Origin: an uncultured Elusimicrobiales bacterium
Lineage (GTDB): Bacteria; Elusimicrobiota; Endomicrobiia; Endomicrobiales; CAIRNS01
DNA length: 62,666 nucleotides
Assembly: GCA_964577205.1 (NCBI GenBank)
Contig: CAZNYG010000002.1
Span: forward strand, 3,757-66,422
Direction of reading: 5' to 3'
Shown: positions 4,077-62,666 of the stretch, in pieces
Position numbering within the stretch: the stretch's first letter is position 1
Layout of the letters: each line of letters begins with the position of its first letter
The notes under the pieces: model-generated
What the model saw: the letters and a program-made list of their open reading frames with translations, nothing else
The model's database searches: none
Told to the model about the DNA's origin: nothing
Made by a program: the position numbers and the translations under genes

Positions 4077-4086
4077 GTTTGAGATT

Positions 4087-4833
4087 TTAACGGGATTTCT
4101 GCAGGTAGATCTCGTAGAGAAGTACGGCGGAAGCGCAGGACGCGTTGAGGGATGAGACGGGGGACGTCTGGGGTATGGAGATCAGGTAGTCGCAGCGGTC
4201 TTTTACCAGGCGGTGAAGGCCTTCGCCTTCGCTGCCGATGACAAGGGCCATGGGGAAAGCGAACTTTTCTTCCCTGACTGATTTGCCGGCCGCGTCCGCG
4301 CCGACCACCCAGATCTGTTTCTCTTTCAGGCGGGTGACCGTTTCAGCGATGTTAGTCACCCGGGCGATGGGCATGTATTCGCTGGCGCCTGCCGATGCTT
4401 TGGCCACCGATTCCGTCAATCCCACCGACCGCCACTTGCCGATTATTACTCCGTCAGCACCCAGCGTTACCGCGTTGCGGATAATGGCTCCAAGGTTATG
4501 AGGGTCTTCGATGCCATCCAGGACGACGAGCAGGGGATTCTTTTTTTCTTTTACGCTGTTCCAAAGCTCGTCCAGATCAAGATAAGTGACCGGCGCTATC
4601 TCGGCGACTACGCCCTGATTATTTTCAATGCTCAGCCGGTCCAGGCGCTCCGCCGGCACATGGTGCACGGGAATGTTGCGTTCGCGCGCGAGGCGGTCGA
4701 TCTCCCCGATGACGTCGCCGCGGGCTTTTTCAGAGATCAAAACCTTATTGACCGTCTTATTCCCCGCCTTCAACAATTCCCTGACCGGATTCCTGCCCGA
4801 TATAATATCTTCCATGGGTTCCTTTGGAGCCAT
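4087..4833 (-). CDS. rlmB: 23S rRNA (guanosine-2'-O)-methyltransferase, SpoU/TrmH family (RlmB-like)
   Basis: N-terminal SpoU substrate-binding region (GRNPVRELLKAG). SpoU motifs LDGIEDPHNLGAIIRNA, LVIGSEGEGL and IPQTSPVSSLNASCASAVLLYE. The start may instead be Met7 at 4815, which has AAGGAA upstream. Confidence 0.85.
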   Translation of the reverse strand: MAPKEPMEDIISGRNPVRELLKAGNKTVNKVLISEKARGDVIGEIDRLARERNIPVHHVPAERLDRLSIENNQGVVAEIAPVTYLDLDELWNSVKEKKNPLLVVLDGIEDPHNLGAIIRNAVTLGADGVIIGKWRSVGLTESVAKASAGASEYMPIARVTNIAETVTRLKEKQIWVVGADAAGKSVREEKFAFPMALVIGSEGEGLHRLVKDRCDYLISIPQTSPVSSLNASCASAVLLYEIYLQKSR

Positions 4834-4874
4834 CAGCGGTCAGCTTTCAGCTGTCAGCATGAACAGTGAACAGC
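4834..4874. repeat. Heptamer 'cagc' word array abutting the rlmB start codon
   Basis: cagcggt cagcttt cagctgt cagcatgaa cagtgaa cagc. The partial inverse gctgacagc lies at 4964-4972. Confidence 0.6.
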
Positions 4875-4984
4875 ATTGCGGAAAGACATATTCGAGGGAC
4901 GAACTTTATCCCTCCTGCGAAACTCCATCAATAATCTGTCGTTGTCTTCAGCCGTTGCCTCTTGCTGACAGCTATCTGTTATCT

Positions 4985-6364
4985 TTATGCTTTTTTTATG
5001 AGCGTCGATACGCCGCCGGGGTTGTCTTCCACGCGGTAGCCGAGGGTGTCGAGCTGGGCGCGGAGAGCGTCGGAATCGGACCAGCGCTTTTCACGGCGGG
5101 CGGTTTCCCTTTTGGTTTTTAGTTCCAGCGCTTCGGCGGGAATAGCGTCAACAAGGACCGGAATTCCGAGGGAATCTTCCATCAAGCTCTTCATCGTCGC
5201 GGCCAGGACCGCCAGTTCGGCGGGAGGCTTTTTTGTCAGCCCGTTCGCCGCTTCATGTTTCAGGTCGTGCAGGACCGACAGCGCTTTTTCCGTGTTGAAA
5301 TCGTCATCCAGCATTTCGCGGAACCGGGAGATATACGCGGGATCCGGCTGTGCCGTTTCTTTCGAAGCGGCCTGCGTCAGTTTCTGATATACCTCATCAA
5401 GCCCTTCCAGCGCGCTGCGCGCTGCGACAAGCTTATCGTCAGAAAAATCCAGAGGCGTGCGGTAATGCTGCGAAAGAAGGAAGTAGCGCACCACCCGCGG
5501 ATGGTATTTCTCAAAAATTTCCCGCAGGGTAAAAAAGTTGCCGAGGGACTTGGACATCTTCTCATGGTTGATGGTCACGAAACCGTTGTGCATCCAGTAA
5601 CGGACAAAGGGTTTTCCGGTGGCCGCTTCGCTCTGGGCTATCTCGTTCTCGTGATGGGGGAAAATGAGGTCCTGCCCGCCGCCATGGATGTCCAGCGTGG
5701 GGCCGAGATAGTGAGTGGACATGACCGAGCATTCGATGTGCCATCCCGGCCTGCCTTTACCCCAGGGGCTGTCCCAGCTGACCTCGGCGGGCTCTTCCGG
5801 CTTGGTCCCTTTCCAGAGAGCGAAATCGAGCGGGTCTTTTTTCTTTTCGCCCGGATAGACGCGCGCGACCGTCTGGAGCTCTTCGATATTGCGTTTTGAA
5901 AGCGAGCCGTACGGAGCGAACTTCTTTACGGCATAATAGACATCCCCGTCCACCACGTACGCTTTTTTCTTCTGTACCAGCGTATCGATGAAGGCGACGA
6001 TCTGGGGGACCATCTCCGTGACGCGGGGATAGGCGTCCGCGCGGGCGATGTTCAGCTTGTCCATCTGCGTAAAATAGTCGGCGATGCAGGTGTCGGCCAG
6101 TGCTTTGGGAGAGATCTTCCGCTCATTCGCGCGGGCGATGATCTTGTCGTCGACATCGGTAAAATTCTGAATGTATTTGACGGTATATCCGGACCGCCCG
6201 AAATGCCGGCGGACGATATCGAAGGTCACATACACCCGGGCATGGCCCAGATGCGCCTCATCGTAAGGCGTCACGCCGCACACGTACATAGCGACACTCT
6301 TATCAGCCTGCGGGACGAAAGCTTCCTTTTTTCCCGTCAGCGTATTATGAATAGTTATGGACAT
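4985..6364 (-). CDS. cysS: Cysteine--tRNA ligase
   Basis: Class I HIGH motif (HLGHARVYV) and KMSKS motif (KMSKSLGN). The length and the WHIECS zinc-site region are typical of CysRS. Confidence 0.95.
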   Translation of the reverse strand: MSITIHNTLTGKKEAFVPQADKSVAMYVCGVTPYDEAHLGHARVYVTFDIVRRHFGRSGYTVKYIQNFTDVDDKIIARANERKISPKALADTCIADYFTQMDKLNIARADAYPRVTEMVPQIVAFIDTLVQKKKAYVVDGDVYYAVKKFAPYGSLSKRNIEELQTVARVYPGEKKKDPLDFALWKGTKPEEPAEVSWDSPWGKGRPGWHIECSVMSTHYLGPTLDIHGGGQDLIFPHHENEIAQSEAATGKPFVRYWMHNGFVTINHEKMSKSLGNFFTLREIFEKYHPRVVRYFLLSQHYRTPLDFSDDKLVAARSALEGLDEVYQKLTQAASKETAQPDPAYISRFREMLDDDFNTEKALSVLHDLKHEAANGLTKKPPAELAVLAATMKSLMEDSLGIPVLVDAIPAEALELKTKRETARREKRWSDSDALRAQLDTLGYRVEDNPGGVSTLIKKA

Positions 6365-6385
6365 GAGGGATCCCTTCCTGAAAAT

Positions 6386-6487
6386 CGTTCATTGGTTGAT
6401 TTGTTCACTTGTTCATAAGTGAGTGACATGGGAACATGTTGTTATATTGTTGTTGATTTTCCCAATGAGCCAATGAACAAATGAACG
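6386..6487. repeat. Inverted pair of gttcatt-type word arrays (family A) filling the ispF-cysS spacer
   Basis: Left arm cgttcattggttgatttgttcacttgttcat (6386-6416). Right arm ccaatgagccaatgaacaaatgaacg (6462-6487). By hand alignment, 20 of 26 positions are complementary. The left arm is an exact 31-nt copy of the reverse complement of 24085-24115. Confidence 0.8.
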
Positions 6488-6490
6488 TCT

Positions 6491-7003
6491 TTACTTCCTC
6501 CGCACTTCTTCTGCACTTTCACTGCACTTCTCTTGCACTGTTACTACAGCCATCGCCGCCATCCCCTCGCCCCGTCCGATGAAGCCGATGGCTTCGTTGG
6601 TCGTGGCTTTGATCGCGAGGCGCGTTTCGGGTACGCCGAGTTCGGCGGCAAGCAGTTCTTTCATCCGCGGGATATACGGGGCGATCTTCGGCTGCTCGGC
6701 GATCAGTGTGATGTCGGCATTGTTCACGCTGAACCCGCGTTCTTTTATGCGGGCACAGACATGCCGCAGCAGCAGCAGACTGGAAATGCCGCGGTACTTC
6801 GGATCGGTATTGGGGAAAAGATGCCCGATGTCTTCGCCTCCGGCGGCGCCGAGCAATGCGTCCATCAACGCGTGGATAAGGACGTCGGCGTCGCTGTGGC
6901 CTTCCAGGCCGTGGGTATGAGGGATCGTTACTCCGCCCAGTACCAGCGGCAGGTCTTTTTTGCAGCGGTGCACATCGTATCCGAATCCCGCGAACACGTT
7001 CAT
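6491..7003 (-). CDS. ispF: 2-C-methyl-D-erythritol 2,4-cyclodiphosphate synthase
   Basis: GFGYDVHR and HSDADVLIHALMDALLGA motifs. I prefer the start at 7003 because it gives an ATGA overlap with the ispD stop; the ORF track extends to 7021. Confidence 0.92.
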   Translation of the reverse strand: MNVFAGFGYDVHRCKKDLPLVLGGVTIPHTHGLEGHSDADVLIHALMDALLGAAGGEDIGHLFPNTDPKYRGISSLLLLRHVCARIKERGFSVNNADITLIAEQPKIAPYIPRMKELLAAELGVPETRLAIKATTNEAIGFIGRGEGMAAMAVVTVQEKCSESAEEVRRK

Positions 7004-7668
7004 TTCCTTTCGCGCAACCACAGGCGCGCGACGGCCATATCCGCCGGTTCCGTGATCTTTATGTTGTGATAGCTGCCGGGCACTACAGCGACTTTGCGGC
7101 CGGCATGTTCGACCGCCTGAGCGTCATCAGTGATGCCCGCGGGGAAACGCCGTTTGTAGGCTGCCGTGATTATGTCCCGGCGGAACGTCTGGGGTGTTTG
7201 TGCCAGCCAGACAGTAGAACGGGGTATGGTGCGCGAAACAAATGTCCCCCGGCGTGATTCCTTTATGGTATCGCGCGCGGCGACCGCTACGACCGAAGCG
7301 CCTTTGTCCCTGGCCGCGTTCAGCGCTTTGCGTATGAGTTCGGGCGTGATCAGGGGCCGCGCGGCGTCATGAATGGCAACGTATTCTACAGCCGGATCGA
7401 GACATGTCAGCCCCGCGCGGACCGAATCATATCTTTCGCTGCCCCCGGGGACCAGGACACATCCGTATTTGCGGGGGACGCTTTTCAACGAGCCCGGCAT
7501 ATCGGGGGGGACGACAAGTATGATCTGGCAGATATCCCTGACCCCGCGGAAGGCTTCGATACTCCATGAGAAGACGGGTTTTCCTTCCAGTTTCAAAAAC
7601 TGTTTCGGCACCGGGGAACCGAACCGGCGCCCCGCGCCCGCGGCGACAATGATCGCCGCCGCTTTCAT
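7000..7668 (-). CDS. ispD: 2-C-methyl-D-erythritol 4-phosphate cytidylyltransferase
   Basis: N-terminal AAGAGRRFG nucleotide-binding motif, IHDAARP and TPQTF motifs. It sits directly upstream of ispF. Confidence 0.92.
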   Translation of the reverse strand: MKAAAIIVAAGAGRRFGSPVPKQFLKLEGKPVFSWSIEAFRGVRDICQIILVVPPDMPGSLKSVPRKYGCVLVPGGSERYDSVRAGLTCLDPAVEYVAIHDAARPLITPELIRKALNAARDKGASVVAVAARDTIKESRRGTFVSRTIPRSTVWLAQTPQTFRRDIITAAYKRRFPAGITDDAQAVEHAGRKVAVVPGSYHNIKITEPADMAVARLWLRERK

Positions 7669-8690
7669 TGCGCTTTCCCGCGGGGCTGGTCGTTATGCGT
7701 GTCCCTTTCCTGTCCCGACGGCCGGCTGAAGACCATGCGCCCGGACGATGTCTGAAGGATGGACGTGACGATGACGTCGATGCGTTTGCCCACGTGTTTG
7801 CGCCCCTCTTCCACGACGACCATGGTGCCGTCATCCAGATAACCGATGGCCTGGTGGTGTTCCTTGCCTTCTTTGACAAGGAAAATAGGCATGGTCTCGC
7901 CCGGCAGGAAGACGGGCTTGAGCGCGTTGGAAAGGTCATTGATGTTCAGGACGGTCACTCCCTGCAGCGAGGCGACCTTGTTAAGGTTGAAGTCGGTCGT
8001 GATGATCTTCGCGTCGAGTTCCTTGCCCAGTTCGAGGAGCTTGGCGTCGGCGTCGTGAAGGTTCGGGAAATCCTTGTCGAAGATCTTGACCGTCGAGTTC
8101 TCGTCCTTCTGCAGTTTGGCGACGATATCCAGGCCGCGGCGCGCGCGGTTGCGTTTGTGGGCATCGCTTGAATCAGCCAGCGTCTGGAGTTCTTCCAGCA
8201 CAAAGCGCGGCACGACCAGCGCGCCCGAGATGAACCGTGTTTCCACGATGTCCGCGATGCGCCCGTCGATAACAGTGCTGGTGTCGAGAAGGATAAGATC
8301 GGCGGCCCTTTTCCGGCGCCCCCGTTTGAGGATATCCCTGTCCAGGAGGTCAAGCTCGGATTTCTTGCTGACCGCGATGACAAGGCCCAGGTAGGCAAGG
8401 ACGATCTTGATAAGCAGGGAATAGTCCTTCATGAACTCGTACAGCCGCATATTGTCCATCAGGTATACGGTGTAGTCAAGCAGTTTGGCGCCTATGAGGC
8501 CGAGAACGGCGCCGAGAACGCCGGCGACCAGCGTGTCCAGCGGGATCCTCTGGATAAGCATTTCCGCCAGGATGATGAGCAGCGAGACGGCCAATCCCAT
8601 GAGCACGCCCTGGCGGGTATGGGATATCTGGTAATAACTTATCAAGGGACCGGCTATAAGGACGAACAGACGCATCAGCCATATTAACAA
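7665..8690 (-). CDS. Membrane-anchored PIN plus TRAM domain protein (YacL-like)
   Basis: N-terminal TM helices, a PIN-like core (LLDTSTVIDGRI ... ITTDFNLNKVA) and a C-terminal TRAM-like beta region (GKRIDVIVTSILQTSSGRMVFSR). Its position upstream of ispD matches what I recall for Bacillus yacL. Confidence 0.8.
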   Translation of the reverse strand: MLIWLMRLFVLIAGPLISYYQISHTRQGVLMGLAVSLLIILAEMLIQRIPLDTLVAGVLGAVLGLIGAKLLDYTVYLMDNMRLYEFMKDYSLLIKIVLAYLGLVIAVSKKSELDLLDRDILKRGRRKRAADLILLDTSTVIDGRIADIVETRFISGALVVPRFVLEELQTLADSSDAHKRNRARRGLDIVAKLQKDENSTVKIFDKDFPNLHDADAKLLELGKELDAKIITTDFNLNKVASLQGVTVLNINDLSNALKPVFLPGETMPIFLVKEGKEHHQAIGYLDDGTMVVVEEGRKHVGKRIDVIVTSILQTSSGRMVFSRPSGQERDTHNDQPRGKAQ

Positions 8691-13106: not shown

Positions 13107-13166
13107 TGATGAGTTTCAGCGCGCCGCGGCCTGGTGCCGCGATGCTGTGATGTCATCCGGCCCCCT

Positions 13167-14405
13167 ATGAACATCCTGTTTATTGTCCTGCTGCTGTTGC
13201 TGATCATCACCTGGGCGGCGGTCATCCGCCAGCGGCGCATCTTCCTTCGCAAGGAGCAGAAGTACGTCAGAAAGGTCAAGGACGCGCAGTCCAGGCTTCA
13301 GGAGAATATCGCCGACCTTGACAACCTGATCGTCATGCTGGTTGGCATCCACGAGTTCGGGATGATGGCTACGGGCATCATATCCAAGGAAGAGCTGTCG
13401 CAGTCGGTCATTGATTCCGCCTGCAGGCTGATCCGGTCCGATGCCGGGTCTCTGATGATCCTGAACCGCGACACCAACGAGCTGATGATCGCCGCTTCGC
13501 GCGGCCTGCCGCAGGATGTGGTCGATTCGACCCGCATTCCGCTCGGCGAGGGTGTCGCGGGCCGCGTCGCGCAGACGGGCAAGGCGATCTTCGTCGAGGA
13601 TATAGAGACCGATGCCCGCTTCCTGCGTTCCAACAGCGCGGCGCGGTACACGTCCCGGTCGTTCATCTCGGTGCCCCTGCGGGTCAAGAACCGCATTATC
13701 GGCGTGTTGAACGTCAATTCCCCGGAAGCGGACCGCCGGTTCGAAGAGCGGGACGTCCGCCTGCTGACCATCCTTGCCGACCAGGCCGCCATAACGCTGG
13801 AAAACATCGAGCTCTACGATAACCTGCAGAACTTTTACCTGGAAATGGTGCAGACGCTTGCGCGCGCGATCGACGCGAAGGACGAGTACACGCATGACCA
13901 CGCCGACCGCGCCCGCCGTTACGCGCGCCTTATCGCCTACCGGCTCAACCTGCCGGAAGCGATGGTGCGCCATATCGAATACGCCGCGCTCATGCACGAT
14001 ATCGGCAAGATCGGCATCGATGAAAAGATCCTTCACAAACCCGGAAGGCTTACGGACGAAGAGCGGGAAATAATCAAGAAGCATCCATCCATAGGGAACC
14101 GCATAATAGCTCCCGTGGCATTCCTCTCGCCGGTGGCTCCCATGGTGCTGTATCATCAGGAATGGTATAACGGGCAGGGATATCCCGAAGGCCTGTCGGG
14201 GGAAGAGATACCGCTCGGCGCGCGCATCGTCGCCGTGATCGATACATTCGACGCGATGACATCGGACCGGCCCTACCGCAAAGCGCTTCCCCGAGAAGTC
14301 GCGATCGAAGAGCTGAAGAAAGGGTGCGGGACACAGTTCGACGCGCGCGTCGTCAACGCGTTCCTGGAGATCCTGAAGGAAGAAGAGAGACAGGAGAAGG
14401 GATAA
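13167..14405 (+). CDS. Membrane-anchored GAF plus HD-GYP domain protein (putative c-di-GMP phosphodiesterase)
   Basis: N-terminal TM helix, a GAF-like region (GVAGRVAQTGKAIFVEDIETD) and HD-GYP motifs HDHADRARRYA, HDIGKIGI and GQGYPEG. The alternative GTG start is at 13134. Confidence 0.85.
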   Translation: MNILFIVLLLLLIITWAAVIRQRRIFLRKEQKYVRKVKDAQSRLQENIADLDNLIVMLVGIHEFGMMATGIISKEELSQSVIDSACRLIRSDAGSLMILNRDTNELMIAASRGLPQDVVDSTRIPLGEGVAGRVAQTGKAIFVEDIETDARFLRSNSAARYTSRSFISVPLRVKNRIIGVLNVNSPEADRRFEERDVRLLTILADQAAITLENIELYDNLQNFYLEMVQTLARAIDAKDEYTHDHADRARRYARLIAYRLNLPEAMVRHIEYAALMHDIGKIGIDEKILHKPGRLTDEEREIIKKHPSIGNRIIAPVAFLSPVAPMVLYHQEWYNGQGYPEGLSGEEIPLGARIVAVIDTFDAMTSDRPYRKALPREVAIEELKKGCGTQFDARVVNAFLEILKEEERQEKG

Positions 14406-42728: not shown

Positions 42729-43106
42729 ATGAATGGTAAAATACGAGTGCTGGTCATCGATGATGACCCTGATGTTCTTGAATTCCTGAAGACTTTTTTT
42801 GAGAACCTGGGGCATGAGATCATTTTGACCAACAATGCCGCGGAAGGGCTCAAACAGGTCGTGTTGTCCACGCCCGACCTGGTTCTTCTGGATATCATGC
42901 TGCCTCAGAAGGACGGGCTCACGATACTGAGAGAGATCAAAGATCTGGACAAGGAAGTGCCTGTGGCCATGATCACCGCGTATAAAGACGCGGAACGTGT
43001 CATCGAGGCTTTCCGCCTTGGCGCTATCGACTGCCTGCTCAAACCGTTCAACCTGGACTACATCGTCAACACCGTACTTCCCCGCGTTTCCATCCGCAAC
43101 CGGTAG
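42729..43106 (+). CDS. Stand-alone response-regulator receiver domain (CheY-like)
   Basis: VLVIDDD, the phospho-acceptor context LVLLDIMLP, AMITA, and KP near the C-terminus. There is no output domain. Confidence 0.85.
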   Translation: MNGKIRVLVIDDDPDVLEFLKTFFENLGHEIILTNNAAEGLKQVVLSTPDLVLLDIMLPQKDGLTILREIKDLDKEVPVAMITAYKDAERVIEAFRLGAIDCLLKPFNLDYIVNTVLPRVSIRNR

Positions 43107-45654: not shown

Positions 45655-45713
45655 TATAATGGGCATGTATGGCGCCGCGAGACGGGGGAGATCCTCCGGG
45701 GAAAGGGGAACGA

Positions 45714-46076
45714 ATGAGCTCAATTCTTGTTATCGACGATGAACAGCCGGTCCTGGATTTTCTGGGATCTTTCATACGCCGAATGGGGTTCAACGCGTTG
45801 ACCGCCGCGTCCGGAGCCGAGGGCATTGAGGTGTTCCGGAAGGAAATGCCGGATGTCGTTTTCCTTGACATAATCCTGCCCGACATGCCCGTGGAGAAAG
45901 TGTTTTCCTCGTTGAAAAGCATCAACGGCGCCGTCATTATTTATTTCATCAGCGGTTCGGACAGCGAACTGCAGCGCCTGCATGACCTTAAGCTGGACGC
46001 TAAAGGTTTTTTCAACAAGCCGGTTTTCGTAGACGAGGTCCGGCGCATTCTCGAAGATATCGACCCTTCGGCATAG
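45714..46076 (+). CDS. Stand-alone response-regulator receiver domain (CheY-like)
   Basis: ILVIDDE, VVFLDIILPDM and FNKP. The ATG at 45714 is preceded by GAAAGGGGAA. Confidence 0.8.
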   Translation: MSSILVIDDEQPVLDFLGSFIRRMGFNALTAASGAEGIEVFRKEMPDVVFLDIILPDMPVEKVFSSLKSINGAVIIYFISGSDSELQRLHDLKLDAKGFFNKPVFVDEVRRILEDIDPSA

Positions 46077-53933: not shown

Positions 53934-55162
53934 TGCTGTGCACCTCGGTAAGAAACCGCGTTGTAGGATTCGCGGGCTATCATGATCTCCTCGTTAGTCG
54001 GGACCGCGAGGACCCTTGTTTCCGAACCGGCGCCGGTGATGTCGGCGTTCCGGTACGCGGAAGTGCGGTTCTTTTTTCCATCAAGGGCGATGCCGAAGCA
54101 TTCAAGCCCCTCGCAGGCGCTCAGCCGCACCTCGGGCAGTTCGATGCCCAGAGTGTCGGTGAACACCAGAATATCGGCTTTTTTAAGCAGCAGCGAATAA
54201 TAGCCGATATACTTCCTGACCCTGCGCACGTACATGTCGAAAGTGACGCGCGCTTTCGGGTCGGTATCCCTGTGGCGGGCGACGTCCCTCATATCCGACG
54301 ACGTGCTGAACACGCCTAGGATGCCGCTTTTGAAGTTGAGCATTCTCTCGGCGTCTTCCGGCGAAAGATTGTTCTTTGCCATGACCTGGAAGAGCACGCC
54401 GATGTCGAGGTCGCCGCAGCGGGTGTTCATCATTAGCCCTTCAAGCGGGGTGTACCCCATGGAGTTGTTGATCGAAACGCCGTTCCTGATAGCGCAGACG
54501 CTCGAACCTCCGCTGCCCAGATGGCAGCTGATGATCTTCTGCGTGGCGGGGTCCCTTCCGAGGAACCTGCACGCTTCCTGGGCGATGTACTGATGCGATA
54601 TGCCGTGAAAACCGATCTTTTTGAGATGGTGCTGCCTGACCAGCTTGCCCGGCAGGGCGTACGCGGCGTACTCCGCGGGGATCGTGCTGTGGAAAGCTGT
54701 GTCGAACACCGCGTACTGGGGGATATCCCTGTATTCCCGTGCGCACGTTTCTATGAGGTCGAGGGAAACCTTGTTGTGTATCGGAGCGAGGCTGACGGTT
54801 TTTTTCAACCTGGCGATCGCGCGCTGGTCGATCCTGACGGTGCGCTTGAACGACGGCCCCGGATGAACGTACCGGTGCGCGAAACAGTCACAGGCCGGGC
54901 AGTCCCCGTTCTTCGATCCTTCGTTCAGCAGGGCAATGACTTCCCGGAACGCGGCCGCGTGGTCGGGAAGGGGCACGGTGACCTTTCGTTCCTTTCCTCC
55001 CGCGGAGTGCAGGATGGCGGACGGTTCGCTGCCGAGCATGCCGACGCGCACCGCTTCGCCGCGGGCGCATTCCTCTTCGCCGGGCATCCGGATGACGCGG
55101 TATTTCAGCGACGAGCTGCCGCAGTTGATGACAAGGATGGCGGCGCCGCGTTCAGATCTCAT
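53930..55162 (-). CDS. ackA: Acetate kinase
   Basis: ILVINCGSSSLKY, VFDTAFH, GFHGISHQY, HLGSGGSSVCA, TPLEGLMMNTRCGDLD and PTNEE. Confidence 0.93.
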   Translation of the reverse strand: MRSERGAAILVINCGSSSLKYRVIRMPGEEECARGEAVRVGMLGSEPSAILHSAGGKERKVTVPLPDHAAAFREVIALLNEGSKNGDCPACDCFAHRYVHPGPSFKRTVRIDQRAIARLKKTVSLAPIHNKVSLDLIETCAREYRDIPQYAVFDTAFHSTIPAEYAAYALPGKLVRQHHLKKIGFHGISHQYIAQEACRFLGRDPATQKIISCHLGSGGSSVCAIRNGVSINNSMGYTPLEGLMMNTRCGDLDIGVLFQVMAKNNLSPEDAERMLNFKSGILGVFSTSSDMRDVARHRDTDPKARVTFDMYVRRVRKYIGYYSLLLKKADILVFTDTLGIELPEVRLSACEGLECFGIALDGKKNRTSAYRNADITGAGSETRVLAVPTNEEIMIARESYNAVSYRGAQQ

Positions 55163-56357
55163 CGGAGGACCACCCGAACGTCGGTACGCCGATATTCCTG
55201 TGGAGCATCATCGCCTGCCCGTACACCGCTTTTTTGACCGTCTCGAAACCGGAGGCCTCGGTGGCGGATTCCATCGAAGGGCCGAACCCGAATGTCGGGA
55301 TGCCGAGCTCGCCGAACGTGTAGGAGCCTTCGGTCATTGTGTTCTTCCAGTACCCGGTGCCGGGGGTAAATCCGTTGTCGGTCAACGCCTGCAGGGACCG
55401 CAAAACGAACGGATGGCTGGGTTCCATCGACCACGGTTTGATCTCTTTCTCTGAGACGACATTCGTCCCGGCGATCGTCTTGATGTTCTCCCGGGCCACG
55501 GCGGTCTCCACCAGGACGCTCTGTTCTCCACGGTAGACCGACTGCGCGATCATTTTCGCGCGTTCGAGTATGTTCTCCTGCTGTTCCTCCGGCACGAACG
55601 TCCTGTCTACGATCACTTTGAACTCGTTCTCTTTGTCCAGAGGCTGCGTCCCGCAGAAATGGACGTCCTTGATCTTCAGGCTGGAGCCGCCCATGGAATT
55701 ATTCAGCGGAAGATTGCGGGAAAGGTTTTCCAGCTCGTGGATGAGAGGGAACATGGTGCCCAGGATATTGATGCCGCGGCTTTCAACGAAACCGTTGCCC
55801 AGCCGCACTTTTACGACGATCTCGTATTCCATCCTGCCTTTGTGCCCGAGATAGACGTTCATGTCCGTGGGTTCGCACAGGATGATGCCTTTCAGCCGAT
55901 TGACGCGCTTCCTGAGATAATAATCGAAGAGGTATTTGATCCCGAAGCCGCAGCATCCCGAGCGGGGCACGCCGCATACCAGCACGTCGCCTACCAGCGG
56001 AAGGAGCGTCCTTTTCAGGACGGCGGCGGAATAGAGCGCGGAGATGATCCCCTGGTCGTAGCTGCCGATGCTGTTGCCGTACGGGGCCGTTTCGCCGGGT
56101 TTTCTTCCCTGGGCGTAGTCCAGGTGGAACACGAGGGCGATATCCTGCTCCTGCCGGTAACCGTTCATCGTCCCGACGATGTTGTCGAAGCGGTCGGTCT
56201 CGGAGGAATCGAAATCGAGGGATCTCATCTCGTCGAGGATCAGCCCGTTGAACTGCCCGGCGTCGCCGCCGTCCGTTTTGCATTCTTTGAGTTTTTTCCC
56301 GAACTGCTTCATCGGTTCGCTCAGGCCTTCAAGTTTACTCTGAATAAGCTGCTGCAT
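55152..56357 (-). CDS. M20 (ArgE/DapE/CPG2)-like protein with non-canonical metal/catalytic positions
   Basis: The order FHLDYA ... GSYDQG ... CEPTD ... GHKG resembles M20 peptidases. Where the DEE motif is expected, the sequence reads VPRSGCCGFG. The start at 56357 has AGGAGG 5 nt upstream; the ORF track extends to 56450. Confidence 0.6.
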   Translation of the reverse strand: MQQLIQSKLEGLSEPMKQFGKKLKECKTDGGDAGQFNGLILDEMRSLDFDSSETDRFDNIVGTMNGYRQEQDIALVFHLDYAQGRKPGETAPYGNSIGSYDQGIISALYSAAVLKRTLLPLVGDVLVCGVPRSGCCGFGIKYLFDYYLRKRVNRLKGIILCEPTDMNVYLGHKGRMEYEIVVKVRLGNGFVESRGINILGTMFPLIHELENLSRNLPLNNSMGGSSLKIKDVHFCGTQPLDKENEFKVIVDRTFVPEEQQENILERAKMIAQSVYRGEQSVLVETAVARENIKTIAGTNVVSEKEIKPWSMEPSHPFVLRSLQALTDNGFTPGTGYWKNTMTEGSYTFGELGIPTFGFGPSMESATEASGFETVKKAVYGQAMMLHRNIGVPTFGWSSDEI

Positions 56358-56422
56358 ACATGCCTCCTGTGTAGTATAGATTAACAATGTGAAATATTTG
56401 TAAACACCAATGGCAAATTTTT

Positions 56423-56974
56423 TTAGAACGTAGGGGGGGTGACCACCCATATCGCTTCGCTTTCCTCCTTGCCTGTATTCTTAAATGAATGGGGAGTGCT
56501 GGCGTTGAAGTAGATGCTGTCGCCCTTTTTCAGGACGTATACCGCGTCGTTGAGCGTCACTTCGAGCGTTCCTTTGATGACCAGGATGAACTCCTGGCCG
56601 AAATGTTTGTACATGTTCTCGCCGGAAGCCGCTTTCGGATTGAGCTTGAAAAGCAGGGGTTCCATCTGTTTGTTCGGTTCAGGCGTCGTCAGCAGGTAAA
56701 GGTTGATGCCGTTGCCGATCTCGTCAAGGTGTTTCCGTTCTTCGACGCGCATGACCGGCGATCCCGACCCGGCCTGGTTTTCACCGATCAGATTGCCGAC
56801 CGTGGATGAAAGGCTGTTGGCGATATTCTTCAGCGTTTCCAGCGACGGCTGCGCCTTTCCCGTTTCGATCTGCGAGAGAAAGCTCGGGCTGATATTCACG
56901 CTTTTGGCCAGCGTACGCAGGGTTATTCTCTTTTCCTCGCGCAGCCGTTTGATGTTGACCCCAATGATCTTCAT
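56423..56974 (-). CDS. XRE-family HTH transcriptional regulator with C-terminal cupin domain
   Basis: HTH region ITLRTLAKSVNISPSFLSQIETGK and cupin beta-barrel region EFILVIKGTLEVTL ... GDSIYFNASTPHSF. The start is chosen at MKIIGVNIKRLREE. Confidence 0.85.
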   Translation of the reverse strand: MKIIGVNIKRLREEKRITLRTLAKSVNISPSFLSQIETGKAQPSLETLKNIANSLSSTVGNLIGENQAGSGSPVMRVEERKHLDEIGNGINLYLLTTPEPNKQMEPLLFKLNPKAASGENMYKHFGQEFILVIKGTLEVTLNDAVYVLKKGDSIYFNASTPHSFKNTGKEESEAIWVVTPPTF

Positions 56975-57090
56975 GGCATAAGTATATCCTGAAATCGGCC
57001 AAAAGTCAAGTGGTATCAAACAAAAATAAGTATATGTAAACACATAAACTGCTAAAAAAATCAAATAATTCCACTTTTTATCGGGATGCC

Positions 57091-57128: not shown

Positions 57129-57620
57129 ATGACGGTATTCGTGCTGATCCCCGCTTTGCTGCAATTCCTGAAACTTCACGTCTTTACCGTCATCCTCAAC
57201 CATTTCGTCAATATCCCTCTCTCCATCATTTTCGGTTTCGGCAAGTACGCGGCTTTTGTAATAGCGCTGATCATGGACATTGTGCAGATCGTTGTTTACT
57301 TCAACGTGCTGAACAAGACGTCGATCGGCAAACGGTTCGGCTGGATCGTGGACGACAAGATGATCAAGGAGTACCGTGAGCCCGAATTCGTCGTCCGCAT
57401 GCAGAATAAGGGGATGTACTACTGGGCGGTCATGTCCCTTTCGCTACTGCCGGTGTATTTCGGAGGGATATTCGTCGCCGTGTTCACTTCGCACATGCTG
57501 AAACTGGATAAAAGAAAGAGCGCGATATACATCTTCATCGGAAGCCTTATCGGCTGCTTTATCTGGACCATCGGCATCTGGAACCTCGTCGAACTGGTGA
57601 TCACTTCGTTCAGGCGCTGA
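57129..57620 (+). CDS. Small polytopic membrane protein, function unknown
   Basis: Four hydrophobic helices, for example AAFVIALIMDIVQIVVYFNVL and YWAVMSLSLLPVYFGGIFVAVF. No motif recognised. Confidence 0.5.
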   Translation: MTVFVLIPALLQFLKLHVFTVILNHFVNIPLSIIFGFGKYAAFVIALIMDIVQIVVYFNVLNKTSIGKRFGWIVDDKMIKEYREPEFVVRMQNKGMYYWAVMSLSLLPVYFGGIFVAVFTSHMLKLDKRKSAIYIFIGSLIGCFIWTIGIWNLVELVITSFRR

Positions 57621-57865: not shown

Positions 57866-59980
57866 ATGGCTGGCTCCCTGCCGTCCCCCGATGTGCCCAT
57901 TGCTGAAGCTCCTTCTGTACGGACGATCACGTTCGGCACGGTCTTTTTCACCGTGAAGGAGCTGATTGCCCTGAACGCGGTGTTCCTTCTGGGCATGACT
58001 CTTTTCCGCGCTGCTTTCTTTTTATTTTTCGCGCGCTTAGGGGACTTTAAAGGCATGTACCTCTCGGTGGCCGAGGCGTTTTTCCTCGGGTTCCGGTTCG
58101 ACCTTTCCGTCGCGGCGTACATCAATACGCTGGTCACGCTGACGCTTCTGATCGTGTGGGCCGTCAACAGCAGGCGCGTGTTCGAATACTGGGCGCGCGC
58201 CCTCGTCTTTTACTATACCGCGCTGTATACCGTCGTCCTGCTGGTGCTCATCGTCGATCTCGGTTTTTTCTCCTATTTCAAGACGCATATCAACAGCATG
58301 ATCTACGGCTTTTTCGAAGACGATACCATGGCGCTGGTCCGGACCATCGCGCAGAACCACCTGTTCATTCCCGCGTTCGCGGCCCTGTGCGGCCTTGTGG
58401 CTTTGATCTTCCTGTGGTGCCGCAGGAACAGTGTGCGCATCCGGAAAGGATACGCCGCCGCGCGGCCCGTTCCGTTCCGTCCATGGATGAAGATCGTCTT
58501 TGTCATTGTGCTGGTGAGCCTGAATGGGCTTGCCGCCCGCGGGTCCCTGCGGATGTTCCCGCTGAGCCCCATTTATGCCGAGATATCATCCGACCCGTTT
58601 ATCAACAAATTGAGCCTGAACGGCATTTTCGCCCTCGGGGAAGCCATGAAGCTCCGCGGGGAGAACAATCAATCCGCTTTCAACCTCGCCCGCCAGTTCG
58701 GATACGAAGGGGACCTGCCTCGCGCTTTTTCGGATTTCACCGGAGAGGGTACGCGAAACTCAGATGGCGCGACTCTTATGGAACGGCTCAGGAAAGTCAC
58801 GCCGGTCAATAAGACGGCTGAACGGCTGCGCCCTGATGTCGTCGTCATCATCATGGAAAGCTTTGGAGGCAACCTTCTGCGCTACGACCGTCCGGATTTC
58901 GACCTCCTGGGGGAACTGCGCCGTCATATTGATGACGGGTATATGTTCCATCGGTTCCTCCCCGCGGGCCTGATCACGATCCATGCCGTGGAATCGATCG
59001 TGCTTAACATCCCTCAGCGTCCGTTCAACCTTTCGGTAACCCAGTCCGAGTATGCCATGCTGCCGTTCCCAACGGCGGCGACGCTTCCGTATAAGCGCGC
59101 CGGGTACGCGACGGCCTTCGTTTACGGCGGAAGCCTCGGGTGGCGTCAGATGGACACGTTCCTCCGGGCGCAGGGATTCGATACGGTGCTGGGGGAAGGC
59201 GCGATGCCCGCGGCTCAGAAAAACCAGTGGGGCGTGTACGATGAATACCTTTTTGATGCCGCTTACAGGGAATTGAATTCGGGCGGAGCGCCGAAGTTCG
59301 TCATGATCATGACCACGACGAATCATCCGCCGTATTCCGTGCCCGCCTCATACAGGCCCGGCCCGCTGAACATCCCGGAGGATCTGGCGCGCGTCATGAC
59401 GAACGACCGTTCGCTGGCGATGAAGCGTTTCGTCACGTATCAGTACGGGAACCAGAAACTGGGCGAATTCATCTCCCGGATCAGGCGGTCGGAAAGAGGG
59501 AGACGCGCCATAATCGCGGTGACCGGCGACCACAATTTCTGGGACGTGTTCAACTACGGCCCGCGCGAACTTTTCTACCGTTACAGCGTTCCCTTCTATC
59601 TTTTCATCCCGGACGAGCTGAAGCCCGCGAAAGTGGACGCCTCTGTCGCGGGAAGCCACATGGACATCATGCCGACCCTTTATCATCTCTCTCTTTCTCA
59701 CCGCGAGTATTACGCGATGGGCAGCGATCTCCTCGGCGCGAAGGCGCCGGCATATGCTTTAGATTCGGAAGGCCTCGTCATTTCCCGGGACGGCGCGGCC
59801 CTTTTCCTTCCTGAAACAGGCCAGGCCGCCGGCTATGCCTGGGACCCCTCTTCTCCCGGCATGCTCCTGCCGGCTCCCTCCATGAATACCGACGGACAGG
59901 CCCGCTATTACAAGGCCGCGTCCGTCGTATCCGAATTCGTGATCAAAAACACCCGCCGTGCCGTTCAAACAGGGCGATAA
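57866..59980 (+). CDS. LTA synthase family protein (membrane-anchored sulfatase / phosphoglycerol-transferase fold)
   Basis: Five N-terminal TM helices followed by an alkaline-phosphatase-superfamily domain with VVVIIMESFGG, TTNHPPYSVP and VTGDHNFW. Confidence 0.85.
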   Translation: MAGSLPSPDVPIAEAPSVRTITFGTVFFTVKELIALNAVFLLGMTLFRAAFFLFFARLGDFKGMYLSVAEAFFLGFRFDLSVAAYINTLVTLTLLIVWAVNSRRVFEYWARALVFYYTALYTVVLLVLIVDLGFFSYFKTHINSMIYGFFEDDTMALVRTIAQNHLFIPAFAALCGLVALIFLWCRRNSVRIRKGYAAARPVPFRPWMKIVFVIVLVSLNGLAARGSLRMFPLSPIYAEISSDPFINKLSLNGIFALGEAMKLRGENNQSAFNLARQFGYEGDLPRAFSDFTGEGTRNSDGATLMERLRKVTPVNKTAERLRPDVVVIIMESFGGNLLRYDRPDFDLLGELRRHIDDGYMFHRFLPAGLITIHAVESIVLNIPQRPFNLSVTQSEYAMLPFPTAATLPYKRAGYATAFVYGGSLGWRQMDTFLRAQGFDTVLGEGAMPAAQKNQWGVYDEYLFDAAYRELNSGGAPKFVMIMTTTNHPPYSVPASYRPGPLNIPEDLARVMTNDRSLAMKRFVTYQYGNQKLGEFISRIRRSERGRRAIIAVTGDHNFWDVFNYGPRELFYRYSVPFYLFIPDELKPAKVDASVAGSHMDIMPTLYHLSLSHREYYAMGSDLLGAKAPAYALDSEGLVISRDGAALFLPETGQAAGYAWDPSSPGMLLPAPSMNTDGQARYYKAASVVSEFVIKNTRRAVQTGR

Positions 59981-60097
59981 CAAAAAAGCCTTGAAATCTC
60001 CGTAAATCTGCATTAGACTTAAAATGTATTTCCCCCGGCTTGATGGGAATGCGTTCCCGTGAATATGGCGATTGCGATTATTCCGCTGCGGGTGCAC

Positions 60098-60131
60098 AAA
60101 ACCGAAATGCCGGTTCATTTCGGTTTTTTTT
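60098..60131 (+). terminator. Intrinsic terminator ending 10 nt before the SRPBCC gene start
   Basis: ACCGAAAT (60101-60108) / ATTTCGGT (60117-60124), followed by TTTTTTTT. The GGAGA RBS and the ATG at 60141 follow immediately. Confidence 0.7.
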
Positions 60132-60140
60132 CTGGAGATC

Positions 60141-60581
60141 ATGATGACCGAATTTACTTTTTCAACAGTTGTCGCGAGGGATCCTGAAGAGGTATTTGTG
60201 GTGCTCAGGGATATCGAAAGATATCCCGTGTTCATGGGCGATGTCAAATCTGTCCATGTTGAAAGTCTGGGAGCCAATAACGCGCGCGTCTCCCGGTGGC
60301 ACATCGATGTCGACGGTACTTCCATAAAGTGGACCCAGGAAGACACTATTGACGACAATGACCGGACTATCATGTTCAGGAGCATCAAGGGTGATTACCT
60401 CTACGAAGGCGACTGGCGCGTCGCCCCGATATCCGGCGGCGCCCGTCTTACCGTGCGCGCGCGTTTTGACTGGGGAGTGCCGAATTTTGAAAAGTATTTC
60501 GGCGACGTGTACGCGAAAAAAGCGCGGCATGCGGTCAAAAGCATGCTGATCGCTCTGAGGCGGAGGCTCGTCCATGGATAA
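60141..60581 (+). CDS. SRPBCC superfamily protein (polyketide cyclase/dehydrase-like lipid-binding fold)
   Basis: About 146 aa, with the pattern VVARDPEEVFVVLRDIERYPVFMGDVKSV ... W ... GDWRV ... typical of Polyketide_cyc2/CoQ10-like START folds. Assigned by eye only. Confidence 0.6.
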   Translation: MMTEFTFSTVVARDPEEVFVVLRDIERYPVFMGDVKSVHVESLGANNARVSRWHIDVDGTSIKWTQEDTIDDNDRTIMFRSIKGDYLYEGDWRVAPISGGARLTVRARFDWGVPNFEKYFGDVYAKKARHAVKSMLIALRRRLVHG

Positions 60582-61665
60582 ATTCGCTTTTCTTTACCAT
60601 CCCTACGACCTGGACAGCCTATACGTCAAAGGCATCATAGAGCCTTCCGTAAGGAATAAAGACCGTCGTTTTGTGGAACGCACCCTGCGCTGGCTTCCTC
60701 CCATTAAGACCGAATCGACGGTCATTACGTCGAAGACCGGCGCTTCAGTCATCGGCGAAATGATACTGGTGCCTCTTATCTGCGATCAGATCATGAATAT
60801 GGAACCTAAATTCGTCCTGGATAAAACAGTCAAGGGCGCGCAGCTTGCCGAGAATCTGGGAGCGCGCATCGCCGGCCTCGGGGCTTATCTCTCCCCTGTC
60901 GGAAGGCGGGGTGCGCTCGTGGCGAAAGCGGTCAGTATCCCTGTAACATCCGGCACGACTTACACGATAGCCACCGCGATAGACGCGACGATCCGGGCGG
61001 CGGAATATGCCGGCCTGCCCATCGGCGAGGCGACCGTTTCCATAGTCGGCGCGACGGGAGCTATCGGCAGGGTGTGCGCGCAGGTGCTGTCGGAAAAAGT
61101 GAATAAGCTGATCCTCGCGGCGCGCACGATGGAGCGCCTTGAAACGCTTCGCCGTGAGATCATTGAAACAAACGACGTCGCGGGAGAAATACTGTGCAAC
61201 AACGATATCAAGGCAGCAGTCGGCGACAGTGATATTGTCGTGATCTCCACGAACACGCCGCTGGAGATCCTCAGCGCGCGTGATTTTCCACCGGGGTGCA
61301 TCGTATGCGATATATCGGTGCCGCATAACATTTCGCAGGAAGACGCCCTGGGTTCTGATGTTCTTATCGTAGATGGAGGATTGGTACAGCCTTTTAGTGA
61401 CGTAGATTTCCAGTATCTCGGGCTGCCTCCAAAGGTGGCCTACGCGTGCCTTTCGGAAGTCATGCTCCTGGCGCTGGATGGACGGTTTGAGAATTTTTCC
61501 ACCGGCGGCGGGATATCATACGGAAAAGTCCGGGAAATCCAGCGGATCGCCGATAAACACGGTTTTTCGCTCGCCCGGTTCAAAAGCTTCGGTGTTGCCG
61601 TAACGGATGAACAGATCGACAGGATCCGGAACGCGCGCGGATGCCGCAAAAGGCGCGCGTCCTGA
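60574..61665 (+). CDS. NAD(P)-dependent oxidoreductase resembling long-chain acyl-[ACP] reductase (AAR family)
   Basis: Colinear by-eye similarity to the cyanobacterial acyl-ACP reductase I recall: FAFLYHP (vs FGLIGHL), TSGTTYT (vs TTGNTHT), ATVSIVGATGAIGRV (vs ATVAVVGATGDIGSA), LILAARTMERLETL (vs LILTARNQERLDNL), ACLSEVMLLALDG (vs ACFAEAMLLEFEG, the catalytic Cys region) and KHGF (vs RHGF). Overlaps the SRPBCC gene by 8 nt. Confidence 0.65.
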   Translation: MDKFAFLYHPYDLDSLYVKGIIEPSVRNKDRRFVERTLRWLPPIKTESTVITSKTGASVIGEMILVPLICDQIMNMEPKFVLDKTVKGAQLAENLGARIAGLGAYLSPVGRRGALVAKAVSIPVTSGTTYTIATAIDATIRAAEYAGLPIGEATVSIVGATGAIGRVCAQVLSEKVNKLILAARTMERLETLRREIIETNDVAGEILCNNDIKAAVGDSDIVVISTNTPLEILSARDFPPGCIVCDISVPHNISQEDALGSDVLIVDGGLVQPFSDVDFQYLGLPPKVAYACLSEVMLLALDGRFENFSTGGGISYGKVREIQRIADKHGFSLARFKSFGVAVTDEQIDRIRNARGCRKRRAS

Positions 61666-62666
61666 TGTGGTATTTCTTTGCGGTTTCTTCCCTGCTGGCC
61701 GGCATCATATGCGGTTTTTTGGGAATATTCGTTTACGGGAAGCACCGGGAGCATGAGCATAACAGGACGTTCGCTGTCGTCAGTATCCTCATTGGGATCT
61801 GGAGTCTTTTTCCCTTCGTGACCGCGATCGCTCCTGATCCTGCTTCCGCTCTCCGCAACGGTCGTATAGTTTATCTTGCGGCATTGTTCGCGCCCGCCGC
61901 CTTCTTTCATTTCGTTTTCACGATCCTCGGTGTTTTTAAGCGTAAGATCATCCGCCGCGCGATCTATGCCTTTTACGCCGTTTCGCTGCTCTTCCTGCCT
62001 TTCCTGTTCTCCCCTCATCTCATCAGGGGGGTCATAGCCCGCTCTCCCGGTTCGTCCGTGGTCCCCGGCCCCCTGTATCCGTTCTACATCGCATTTTTCA
62101 TCGCGCTGTGCCCTTACGCGATCTATCAGATGTACGTGATCTATCGTTCGTCGAGCGGCTACCGCAAGGAACAGCTCAAATTCCTTTCGCTGGGGTTTTT
62201 TGTCGCCATGGTCGCCGGTGGCATGCATCTTTTTTCGGCGTACGCGCCTATCGAGGTCATACCGCACGACCTGTTGCTGATCGCATGGGCATGCATCATC
62301 GCGTACGCGATAGTCAGGCATAAATTTCTCGATATCCGCACAGTGCTTACGAACGCCGGCATATTCCTTCTTCTGTACACACTGGTCCTGGGTATACCTT
62401 TCTGGCTGGGATTCGGGCAGGGACGATGGAAACTTTCGACATTCCTCATGGCGGTGCTGGCCAGCGGGGGGCCGTTCATTTATCTGGGTCTGAAAAAGAA
62501 AGCGGAAAATATCCTTCTTGCCGAGCAGAAAAGATACCAGAGGGTCCTCCTTCAGGCGTCGGAAGGGATGGTACGGCAGCATAGTCTCGATAAGTTGCTG
62601 AAACTGATCGTCCATATCATCAAGAGGGCGGTGCAGCTGGATTACGCGGCGGCTTATATTGACGAC
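61665..62666 (+). CDS. Membrane sensor protein, N-terminal 7TM domain followed by the start of a GAF-like domain; 3' end cut by the window edge
   Basis: My own translation from the ATG at 61665 (overlapping the preceding TGA) runs 334 codons without a stop to the window end. It shows seven hydrophobic helices (MWYFFAVSSLLAGIICGFLGIFVYG ... LSTFLMAVLASGGPFIYLGL), then LLAEQKRYQRVLLQASEGM ... LDKLLKLIVHIIKRAVQLDYAAAYIDD. It is not in the supplied ORF track, which instead lists an antisense ORF at 61440-62615. Confidence 0.65.
   Translation, partial: MWYFFAVSSLLAGIICGFLGIFVYGKHREHEHNRTFAVVSILIGIWSLFPFVTAIAPDPASALRNGRIVYLAALFAPAAFFHFVFTILGVFKRKIIRRAIYAFYAVSLLFLPFLFSPHLIRGVIARSPGSSVVPGPLYPFYIAFFIALCPYAIYQMYVIYRSSSGYRKEQLKFLSLGFFVAMVAGGMHLFSAYAPIEVIPHDLLLIAWACIIAYAIVRHKFLDIRTVLTNAGIFLLLYTLVLGIPFWLGFGQGRWKLSTFLMAVLASGGPFIYLGLKKKAENILLAEQKRYQRVLLQASEGMVRQHSLDKLLKLIVHIIKRAVQLDYAAAYIDD

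Follow-up and report, generated by a model that had tools for sequence, protein, structure and literature searches.

What is a protein resembling the cyanobacterial long-chain acyl-[acyl carrier protein] reductase (AAR) doing in an uncultured Elusimicrobiales bacterium, between a gene for a START-fold protein and a gene for a membrane sensor? The three genes close the 62,666-nucleotide stretch of contig CAZNYG010000002.1 that we analysed (hereafter the window). With moderate confidence, we propose that they encode a Cys-dependent acyl-thioester-to-aldehyde reductase and a START-fold partner, wired to a 7TM-GAF sensor. From the sequence, the window appears to hold a three-gene, translationally coupled cassette:

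60141 to 60581, + strand: SRPBCC/START-fold gene, 146 aa from the ATG at 60141 (open reading frame and Pfam match)
60574 to 61665, + strand: reductase gene of the AAR/PigE-N type (COG5322), 363 aa, a predicted Cys-dependent NAD(P)H thioester reductase
61665 to 62666, + strand: 7TM sensor gene, N-terminal 334 aa (HisKA_7TM), running off the end of the window

A GGAG at 60133-60136 precedes the SRPBCC start, for which public gene calls (P0121) choose instead the second ATG at 60144 (145 aa). The initial annotation of this DNA had described an 8-nt overlap of the SRPBCC and reductase genes and a sensor ATG that begins with the final base of the reductase stop, and both are borne out in the sequence: the overlap covers 60574-60581, and the stop TGA (61663-61665) and the ATG (61665-61667) have one base in common (TGATG). 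Homologues of both the SRPBCC protein and the reductase are known at 59-64% identity, and we therefore regard both genes as real. The sensor open reading frame (ORF) is missing from the ORF listing because it runs off the window; that the ORF track missed it is probably also due to a 391-aa ORF antisense to it (61440-62615, - strand), which is unsupported and looks like a high-G+C artefact.

Identity of the reductase

The 363-aa protein had been described as colinear with cyanobacterial AAR, and both full-length sequence alignment and structure comparison agree with this. In phmmer alignments residues 42-332 correspond to AAR residues 38-335 and residues 3-350 to PigE residues 2-354, with ∼28% identity to S. 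elongatus AAR. The best match in a search of PDB sequences was full-length PigE (4PPM, 2.5e-28), followed by S. elongatus AAR (6JZQ, 2e-22). The dinucleotide-binding motif and the catalytic Cys that had been picked out by eye were found in the expected places: the loop reads VGATGAIG at 158-165 (G159-A-T-G-A-I-G165), and the segment Y-A-C292-L-S-E-V-M-L-L aligns by phmmer over f-A-C-F-A-E-A-M-L-L of AAR, which puts C292 at the position of the AAR Cys. In the AAR structure 162-GATGDIG-168 is the dinucleotide loop and C294 carries the acyl-thioester intermediate (PMC7089970). Across 21 homologues, with 35-63% identity to the window reductase, no substitution occurs at C292, E295, G159, G162 or G165. 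An AlphaFold2 (AF2) model of the protein (pLDDT 90.4, pTM 0.89) matched the AAR structures 6JZQ, 6JZU and 6JZY with TM-scores of 0.77-0.83 and E-values down to 7e-25, the next fold class being far behind with the exception of the “terminal amidation domain” of a polyketide synthase (PKS)/nonribosomal peptide synthetase (9E4U). Since the alignments, the invariant Cys and loop and the fold of the model all agree, we assign the window protein as a predicted AAR-fold, Cys-type thioester reductase.

The designation of the locus as an AAR module holds for the fold, the Cys and the loop, and fails for orthology. The NCBIfam AAR model TIGR04058 aligned over nearly its whole length with residues 42-332 (4.1e-27), at 95.4 bits against an equivalog cutoff of 449.7, and because this cutoff is missed by so wide a margin we do not consider the protein an AAR ortholog. 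The PigE model NF053554 scored higher, its positions 1-355 matching residues 3-353 at 1.2e-52 and 179 bits, where the whole-protein cutoff of 850 is set for the 837-aa PigE fusion; the hemA model matched at 8e-09. These scores place the reductase in a separate, large and uncharacterized family that appears closer to the PigE N-terminal domain. For that domain a role as thioester reductase has experimental support (PMC8341465), and the same role has been assigned to the COG5322 domain of TamH (PMC9594044) and proposed for that of KecF (PMC6498172).

It was also necessary to consider whether the protein is a shikimate, quinate or amino-acid dehydrogenase, since its only Pfam match is Shikimate_DH (PF01488; residues 151-256, 7.3e-11) and NCBI gives homologues the name “shikimate dehydrogenase” or “predicted amino acid dehydrogenase”. 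We give this identity a negligible probability. The match covers the Rossmann domain only, the shikimate-binding N-terminal domain was not found by Pfam, and the AF2 model superimposed on the shikimate dehydrogenases AroE and YdiB with TM-scores of 0.4-0.5 and a root-mean-square deviation >10 Å, compared with a TM-score of ∼0.8 for AAR. The Rossmann-only match and the fold comparison effectively refute a shikimate dehydrogenase, and with the Cys invariant the protein does not fall into an unrelated dehydrogenase family from which this residue has been lost.

For the survey of genomes one genome per GTDB species was scanned, the best 80 of at least 582 reductase relatives were retained as loci, ORFs were called in these loci and the neighboring proteins clustered, and a few metagenomic contigs were added. 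The reductases were placed in a rough neighbor-joining (NJ) distance tree without support values that included AAR and PigE-N, AAR being the outgroup. The initial annotation had remarked on the lack of an aldehyde-deformylating oxygenase (ADO), the usual partner of AAR, and this extends beyond the window, as no ferritin-like gene was a conserved neighbor in the 80 loci. A tblastn search for ADO in the window and 91 loci gave nothing significant, which is weak evidence because the ADO query was an unverified sequence.

The SRPBCC partner and its fusions to the reductase

The product of the first gene matched Polyketide_cyc2 (4.6e-14) and Polyketide_cyc (9.1e-13) in Pfam, at 53.4 and 49.0 bits against cutoffs of 27.4 and 23.4. 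Its closest solved structure by sequence is TTHA0849 (2D4R; 1.5e-11), and its conserved residues are W53, W64, G84-D85, G90, W92 and D110. Because a word-indexed homolog search with the 146-aa protein as query returned only 2 matches, co-occurrence with the reductase was scored by phmmer and jackhmmer on the ORFs of the loci and by using a fusion protein as query. Of the 80 loci, 16 have an SRPBCC gene just ahead of the reductase gene and on the same strand, and wherever such a gene is present this is its position; the junctions mostly measure -8 to +7 nt, those of L003, L062 and L080 being 24-60 nt. Single polypeptides comprising SRPBCC and reductase (P0016, P0036, P0037 and P0042) had appeared in the first homolog search. 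An exhaustive HMMER search of 1.84 billion representative sequences with P0016 gave 3264 relatives at E≤1e-3, in which at least 15 clusters (50% identity) span both domains, always in the order SRPBCC then reductase. The pairing proposed from this one locus is thus conserved across genomes. In two of the three clades described below the reductase has the SRPBCC protein as its dedicated partner; elsewhere a protein family that we call c2 serves as alternative or additional partner. Further fusions hinted at by long ORFs in L012 and L045 were rejected as artefacts of upstream read-through in high-G+C sequence.

Several fusions carry signalling domains. Three SRPBCC-reductase fusions (P0123, P0124 and P0125) have an extra N-terminal PilZ domain, and one of these also has a helix-turn-helix (HTH) domain. 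P0124 occurs on two contigs (L089 and L090), and a 7TM gene comes next, overlapping its end by 4 nt; the best match of this 7TM protein is the window sensor (4.7e-61). In P0162 the reductase is fused at its C-terminus to a GAF domain, and directly before it (L091, 5111-8175) stand genes for an acyl carrier protein (ACP) and a FabA/ApeI-like dehydratase, an arrangement that supports an acyl-ACP substrate and is the sole direct hint of one. GAF-cyclase and Ser/Thr-kinase signalling genes were also observed around the P0162 locus.

An AF2 model of the natural fusion P0016, a 53%-identical relative (pTM 0.74), shows the helix-grip fold, its N-terminal half matching 2D4R with a TM-score of 0.86. 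Since START-fold proteins include true receptors such as PYR/PYL, and PYL and cytokinin-binding proteins are among the fold matches of this half of the model, the pair might be a sensory accessory, in which the SRPBCC protein is a small-molecule receptor and the reductase reads the acyl-thioester or NAD(P)H state and contacts the 7TM-GAF kinase or phosphodiesterase. The tight translational coupling, the reductase-GAF fusion and the lack of conserved downstream pathway genes would also suit such a device. We nevertheless judge it unlikely: strict retention of the Cys and the nucleotide loop in the 21 homologues argues for turnover, and in one clade the pair stands beside a PigE-like aminotransferase gene, which is a biosynthetic arrangement.

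Three architectures of the reductase loci

Three architectures were distinguished among the 80 loci, and these coincide with clades of the NJ tree:

Type A (window, L001, L002, L004, L005, L006, L016, L056): SRPBCC, reductase, HisKA_7TM sensor, often with response-regulator receiver (REC) genes next; hosts are Endomicrobiaceae, Omnitrophota and Elusimicrobiota
Type B (L003, L008, L013, L033, L043, L046, L061, L062, L080): class-III aminotransferase, SRPBCC, reductase, c2, (GreA, LysS); hosts are Vulcanimicrobiota, Tumebacillus and unclassified metagenome-assembled genomes
Type C (∼60 loci): BirA, CoaX, DusB, (c29), c9, c2, reductase, GreA, LysS; hosts are Firmicutes (L014, L038, L051 and L057 among them), Negativicutes, Armatimonadota and others

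In type B the aminotransferase is putrescine-aminotransferase-like and scores 430 bits against the C-terminal half of PigE, so that by sequence the type-B locus resembles a “split PigE” with an inserted SRPBCC protein. From this gene order one would expect Vulcanimicrobiota, Tumebacillus and others to turn an aldehyde into an amine. One type-B locus, L061, has no c2 and lies outside the main type-B clade of the tree. The window itself contains no aminotransferase gene detectable by tblastn with six class-III aminotransferase proteins, and no c2 homolog was found elsewhere in it.

Type-C loci have no SRPBCC gene within 8 kb. Their fixed block of housekeeping genes, in which c9 is a Tfx-like HTH protein, suggests a previously unrecognized core function in the Firmicutes/Negativicutes clade. 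The unnamed c2 family, of ∼305 aa, adjoins the reductase in 50 of the 80 loci (for example L007, L010, L014, and L068 at 7071-7988). It is also fused to the N-terminus of the reductase, giving proteins of ∼700 aa, in at least 24 of the top 150 representative clusters (P0152, P0193 and P0221 among them), many from Firmicutes. An N-terminal pattern, VSLGSS-R-(D/N)H...GTDGD...DG-VDA-GLGG, marks the family, which had no match in Pfam (also at E≤10), NCBIfam or the PDB sequences.

The kinship with PigE raises the question of whether the substrate is fatty at all. The PigE N-terminal domain, the best-scoring family, acts on a 3-acetyloctanoyl thioester (PMC8341465). The cassette might reduce a keto-acyl or polyketide-like intermediate on an ACP (as in PigE/KecF), or else a short polar acyl group or, like GluTR, an aminoacyl-tRNA, with the SRPBCC protein acting on the aldehyde as a cyclase or dehydratase. 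Relatives of the SRPBCC protein include polyketide aromatase/cyclases and thebaine synthase, polar residues (D85, D110 and K127) are conserved in it, and the genes of clades B and C adjoin lysS. Against this, PKS, ketosynthase and ACP genes are not conserved in type-A loci, the ACP and dehydratase genes occur in one distant relative only, and nothing in this analysis supports catalysis by the SRPBCC protein; we consider a non-fatty substrate of this kind improbable.

The 7TM sensor as the third part of the type-A cassette

The initial annotation had called the third gene product a 7TM-GAF sensor. The 7TM part was confirmed by a Pfam match to HisKA_7TM (PF16927; 2.3e-18, 67.3 bits against a cutoff of 28.6), and the fragment is 47% identical to an Endomicrobiaceae protein (L001) and 56% identical to a partial Omnitrophica protein. 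The GAF domain lies outside the window: in homologues it begins near residue 319, and since the window ends at residue 334 of the sensor its presence is predicted from relatives (L001, and Pfam matches in L081, L083 and an L002 sensor). The counterpart of the L001 sensor in L081/L082 has the order 7TM-GAF-HATPase_c. Orthologs have either GAF and HATPase_c (L081, L083, L085 and L087) or GAF and HD-GYP (Omnitrophota loci), so that the output domain varies between HATPase_c and HD-GYP and the 7TM(-GAF) input is constant. Nine aligned 7TM domains, from the window and 8 orthologs, share the motifs G-x-W-x-x-x-P, Y-x-x-A-x-F and H...E-x-x-P-H-D. We also considered a retinal-like Schiff base between an aldehyde and a Lys of the 7TM domain, an idea that was dropped because the nine aligned sensors have no invariant transmembrane Lys.

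A HisKA_7TM protein is encoded immediately after the reductase in all eight type-A loci (the window and 7 others), which form one clade in the NJ tree. Six further metagenomic contexts repeat the sensor pattern, with histidine-kinase (HK), HD-GYP, REC or cyclase neighbors:

L081 and L083: SRPBCC, reductase, 7TM-GAF-HATPase_c
L085: REC, two tandem SRPBCC-reductase pairs (3908-7089), then a single 7TM-GAF-HK
L086: 7TM-HK ... SRPBCC, reductase, GAF-HK, REC, REC, GAF-HD, REC
L087: SRPBCC-reductase fusion, 7TM-GAF-HK, REC-cyclase
L088: 7TM-HK, SRPBCC-reductase fusion, GAF-HK, REC, REC

The 7TM sensor is thus the third conserved part of the cassette in the type-A clade and not an incidental neighbor.

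This recurrence bears on a rival explanation, close to the proposal of the initial annotation: the cassette would be purely metabolic and supply fatty aldehyde or alcohol to envelope or storage lipids, the SRPBCC protein would carry the product, and the sensor would be a co-transcribed neighbor only. The AAR-like fold and catalytic Cys would be expected of such a pathway, an LtaS/OpgB-like envelope enzyme is encoded upstream in the window, and the related clades B and C lie among housekeeping and not signalling genes. However, the sensor recurs in every type-A locus examined, across phyla and output domains, PilZ and GAF domains are fused to the enzyme itself, and the LtaS-like gene is not conserved beside the pair. 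We regard a purely metabolic cassette as on balance rather unlikely.

Proposed mechanism

In the reading that we prefer, that of a thioester reductase with a START-fold partner wired to the sensor, an acyl group would move from a phosphopantetheine thioester (acyl-ACP or acyl-CoA) to Cys292, and NAD(P)H seated at the GATGAIG loop would then reduce the acyl-enzyme and so free the aldehyde. The analysis shows the fold along with the motif and the Cys; the chemistry is what we infer by analogy to AAR, PigE, TamH and GluTR. Characterized relatives pass the reactive aldehyde to a bound partner, either ADO or an aminotransferase (PMC7089970, PMC8341465). The SRPBCC protein would be an obligate partner of the reductase and probably takes the place of ADO (the partner of AAR) or of the aminotransferase (PigE, TamH and KecF; also GluTR-GSAM). 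Adjacency and fusion show the partnership; the START-fold cavity may give shelter to the reactive aldehyde or to the hydrophobic chain of the acyl group, or the SRPBCC protein may deliver the acyl chain. The aldehyde of clade B would go on to an amine. In clade A the product, or the activity of the enzyme, would be coupled to the 7TM-GAF sensor, with its histidine kinase or HD-GYP output, and to cyclic di-GMP (c-di-GMP); in some relatives the link may be a domain fused to the enzyme, either a GAF domain or a PilZ domain that binds c-di-GMP.

The association with the sensor is observed, and either direction of coupling would fit it. The aldehyde or lipid product may be the ligand of the sensor or a feedback signal to it, as from a synthase to a receptor. 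Alternatively the sensor and c-di-GMP may control the enzyme, as the PilZ fusions suggest. A more specific proposal is a new class of lipid-aldehyde or lipid-aldehyde-derived signals in Omnitrophota, Elusimicrobiota and relatives, made by the SRPBCC-reductase pair and received by the 7TM-GAF protein, in a synthase-carrier-receptor system cross-wired to c-di-GMP through HD-GYP and PilZ domains; we put this forward only tentatively and consider it rather unlikely.

Several observations weigh against the preferred reading as a whole. Genes for ACP, acyl-CoA ligase and other lipid functions are not conserved beside the type-A cassette, and adjacency of the sensor gene alone shows neither that information flows nor in which direction. 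The position of types B and C among housekeeping genes with c2 implies that the ancestral role may be metabolic and not signalling. In addition, the window sequence stops ahead of the GAF and output domains of the sensor.

Comparison with known systems

With AAR (6JZQ, 6JZU and 6JZY) the window reductase shares the three-domain fold, the GxTGxIG NADPH loop, the position of the Cys and the company of a small partner protein, and by analogy the same chemistry would be expected, from acyl-thioester through acyl-Cys to aldehyde. It differs in its low identity (∼28%), in having a START-fold partner instead of the di-iron ADO, in its signalling context and in its hosts, which are non-photosynthetic uncultured lineages. 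PigE (prodigiosin), TamH (tambjamine) and KecF (koreenceine) belong to the best-scoring family and have the Cys and nucleotide motifs in common with it. These known fusion enzymes have no SRPBCC domain, whereas the window cassette has an SRPBCC partner, stands outside any pyrrole or alkaloid cluster and is without an aminotransferase gene in 62 kb. The GluTR-GSAM pair is comparable in that NADPH reduces an acyl group bound to a Cys and the reactive aldehyde passes straight to the partner, and the Rossmann domains are related; the similarity is weak and confined to that domain, and the substrate class and partner fold differ.

The SRPBCC protein is predicted to have the helix-grip fold of TTHA0849 (2D4R), of RatA/CoQ10-like proteins and of polyketide aromatase/cyclases, and the motif G-D-x-x-x-x-E-G-x-W is common to it and TTHA0849, a protein without known function. 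In contrast to the window protein, none of these is known to be paired with or fused to an AAR-like reductase.

In the RpfF/RpfC/RpfG system (diffusible signal factor, DSF) and the CqsA/CqsS system (CAI-1), an enzyme that draws on acyl-ACP or acyl-CoA is encoded beside a polytopic membrane sensor kinase, with HD-GYP and REC proteins nearby. RpfF is a crotonase and CqsA a pyridoxal phosphate enzyme, and their sensors are not known to be of the HisKA_7TM-GAF type. If the cassette signals, its logic would be like that of the DSF and CAI-1 systems with no homology to them. A literature search found no account of an SRPBCC partner for an AAR-like reductase, nor of a link between such a reductase and a HisKA_7TM sensor. 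The kind of enzyme is already known, and the SRPBCC partner, the fusions and the signalling context are new.

AAR-type reductases have been known in two settings, namely alkane synthesis with ADO, and amine or alkaloid synthesis in fusion with aminotransferases. The loci described here form a third, phylogenetically broad and unstudied, in which the reductase has a dedicated START-fold partner, often fused to it; one of the clades has this pair tied firmly to a 7TM-GAF sensor and to c-di-GMP modules. Should the pair produce or sense a lipid aldehyde on behalf of that receptor, the HisKA_7TM proteins, so far an orphan family, would have a candidate for their ligand, a defined job could be assigned to a bacterial START protein, and fatty-acid metabolism would be joined by a new route to second-messenger signalling in phyla about which little is known. 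The survey also sets right a common misnaming as “shikimate dehydrogenase” and exposes the unnamed 305-aa c2 family, and a reductase with a built-in aldehyde-holding partner could be of interest for biocatalysis of fatty aldehydes, alcohols and amines.

Surroundings of the cassette in the window

Two genes that the initial annotation had placed upstream of the cassette, for an LtaS-family protein and a small membrane protein, are both present, and neither is a conserved neighbor in the surveyed loci:

57866 to 59980, upstream of the cassette: Sulfatase/LtaS-OpgB-like gene (Sulfatase match; LtaS/OpgB-like matches weak)
57129 to 57620, upstream of the cassette: gene for an Sm_multidrug_ex membrane protein (profile match)

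Other signalling genes of the window are one for a soluble GAF-HD-GYP protein (13134-14405, + strand), 39% identical to a type-A GAF-HD protein of L004, and two for stand-alone REC proteins. That at 45669-46076 (+ strand) falls into one cluster with the REC genes found after the sensor in other type-A loci; that at 42729-43106 (+ strand) was identified by Pfam only.

The 160-nt gap between the LtaS-like gene and the SRPBCC gene (59981-60140) contains two candidate elements:

59991 to 60019, + strand: weak sigma-70-like promoter match, TTGAAA-17-TAGACT (9 of 12 consensus positions; candidate only)
60098 to 60135, + strand: strong 12-bp hairpin (AAAACCGAAATG/CATTTCGGTTTT) and, after it, a T-run; the element ends 5 nt short of the SRPBCC start

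The first may be the transcript start of the cassette; the count of promoter-like sites in the cassette region is not above the shuffled expectation. The hairpin is seen in both the minimum free energy and the centroid folds, and could either end transcription of the LtaS-like gene or act as a leader or attenuator for the cassette. The idea of a riboswitch or leader was set aside since a scan of 59800-60300 against Rfam at E≤1 matched no family and the fold z-score is only -1.6.

Beside the acetate kinase gene of the window lies a 432-aa ORF (55152-56450, - strand) that had no Pfam match at E≤1e-3. A gene for an XRE-HTH and Cupin_2 regulator (56423-57064, - strand) is located 3 kb upstream of the cassette. 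A gene of its cluster, c92, comes after the cassette in L004; in L086 this place is taken by a gene of the same Pfam architecture (HTH_3 and Cupin_2), so that a regulator of this type may be a recurrent neighbor of the cassette.

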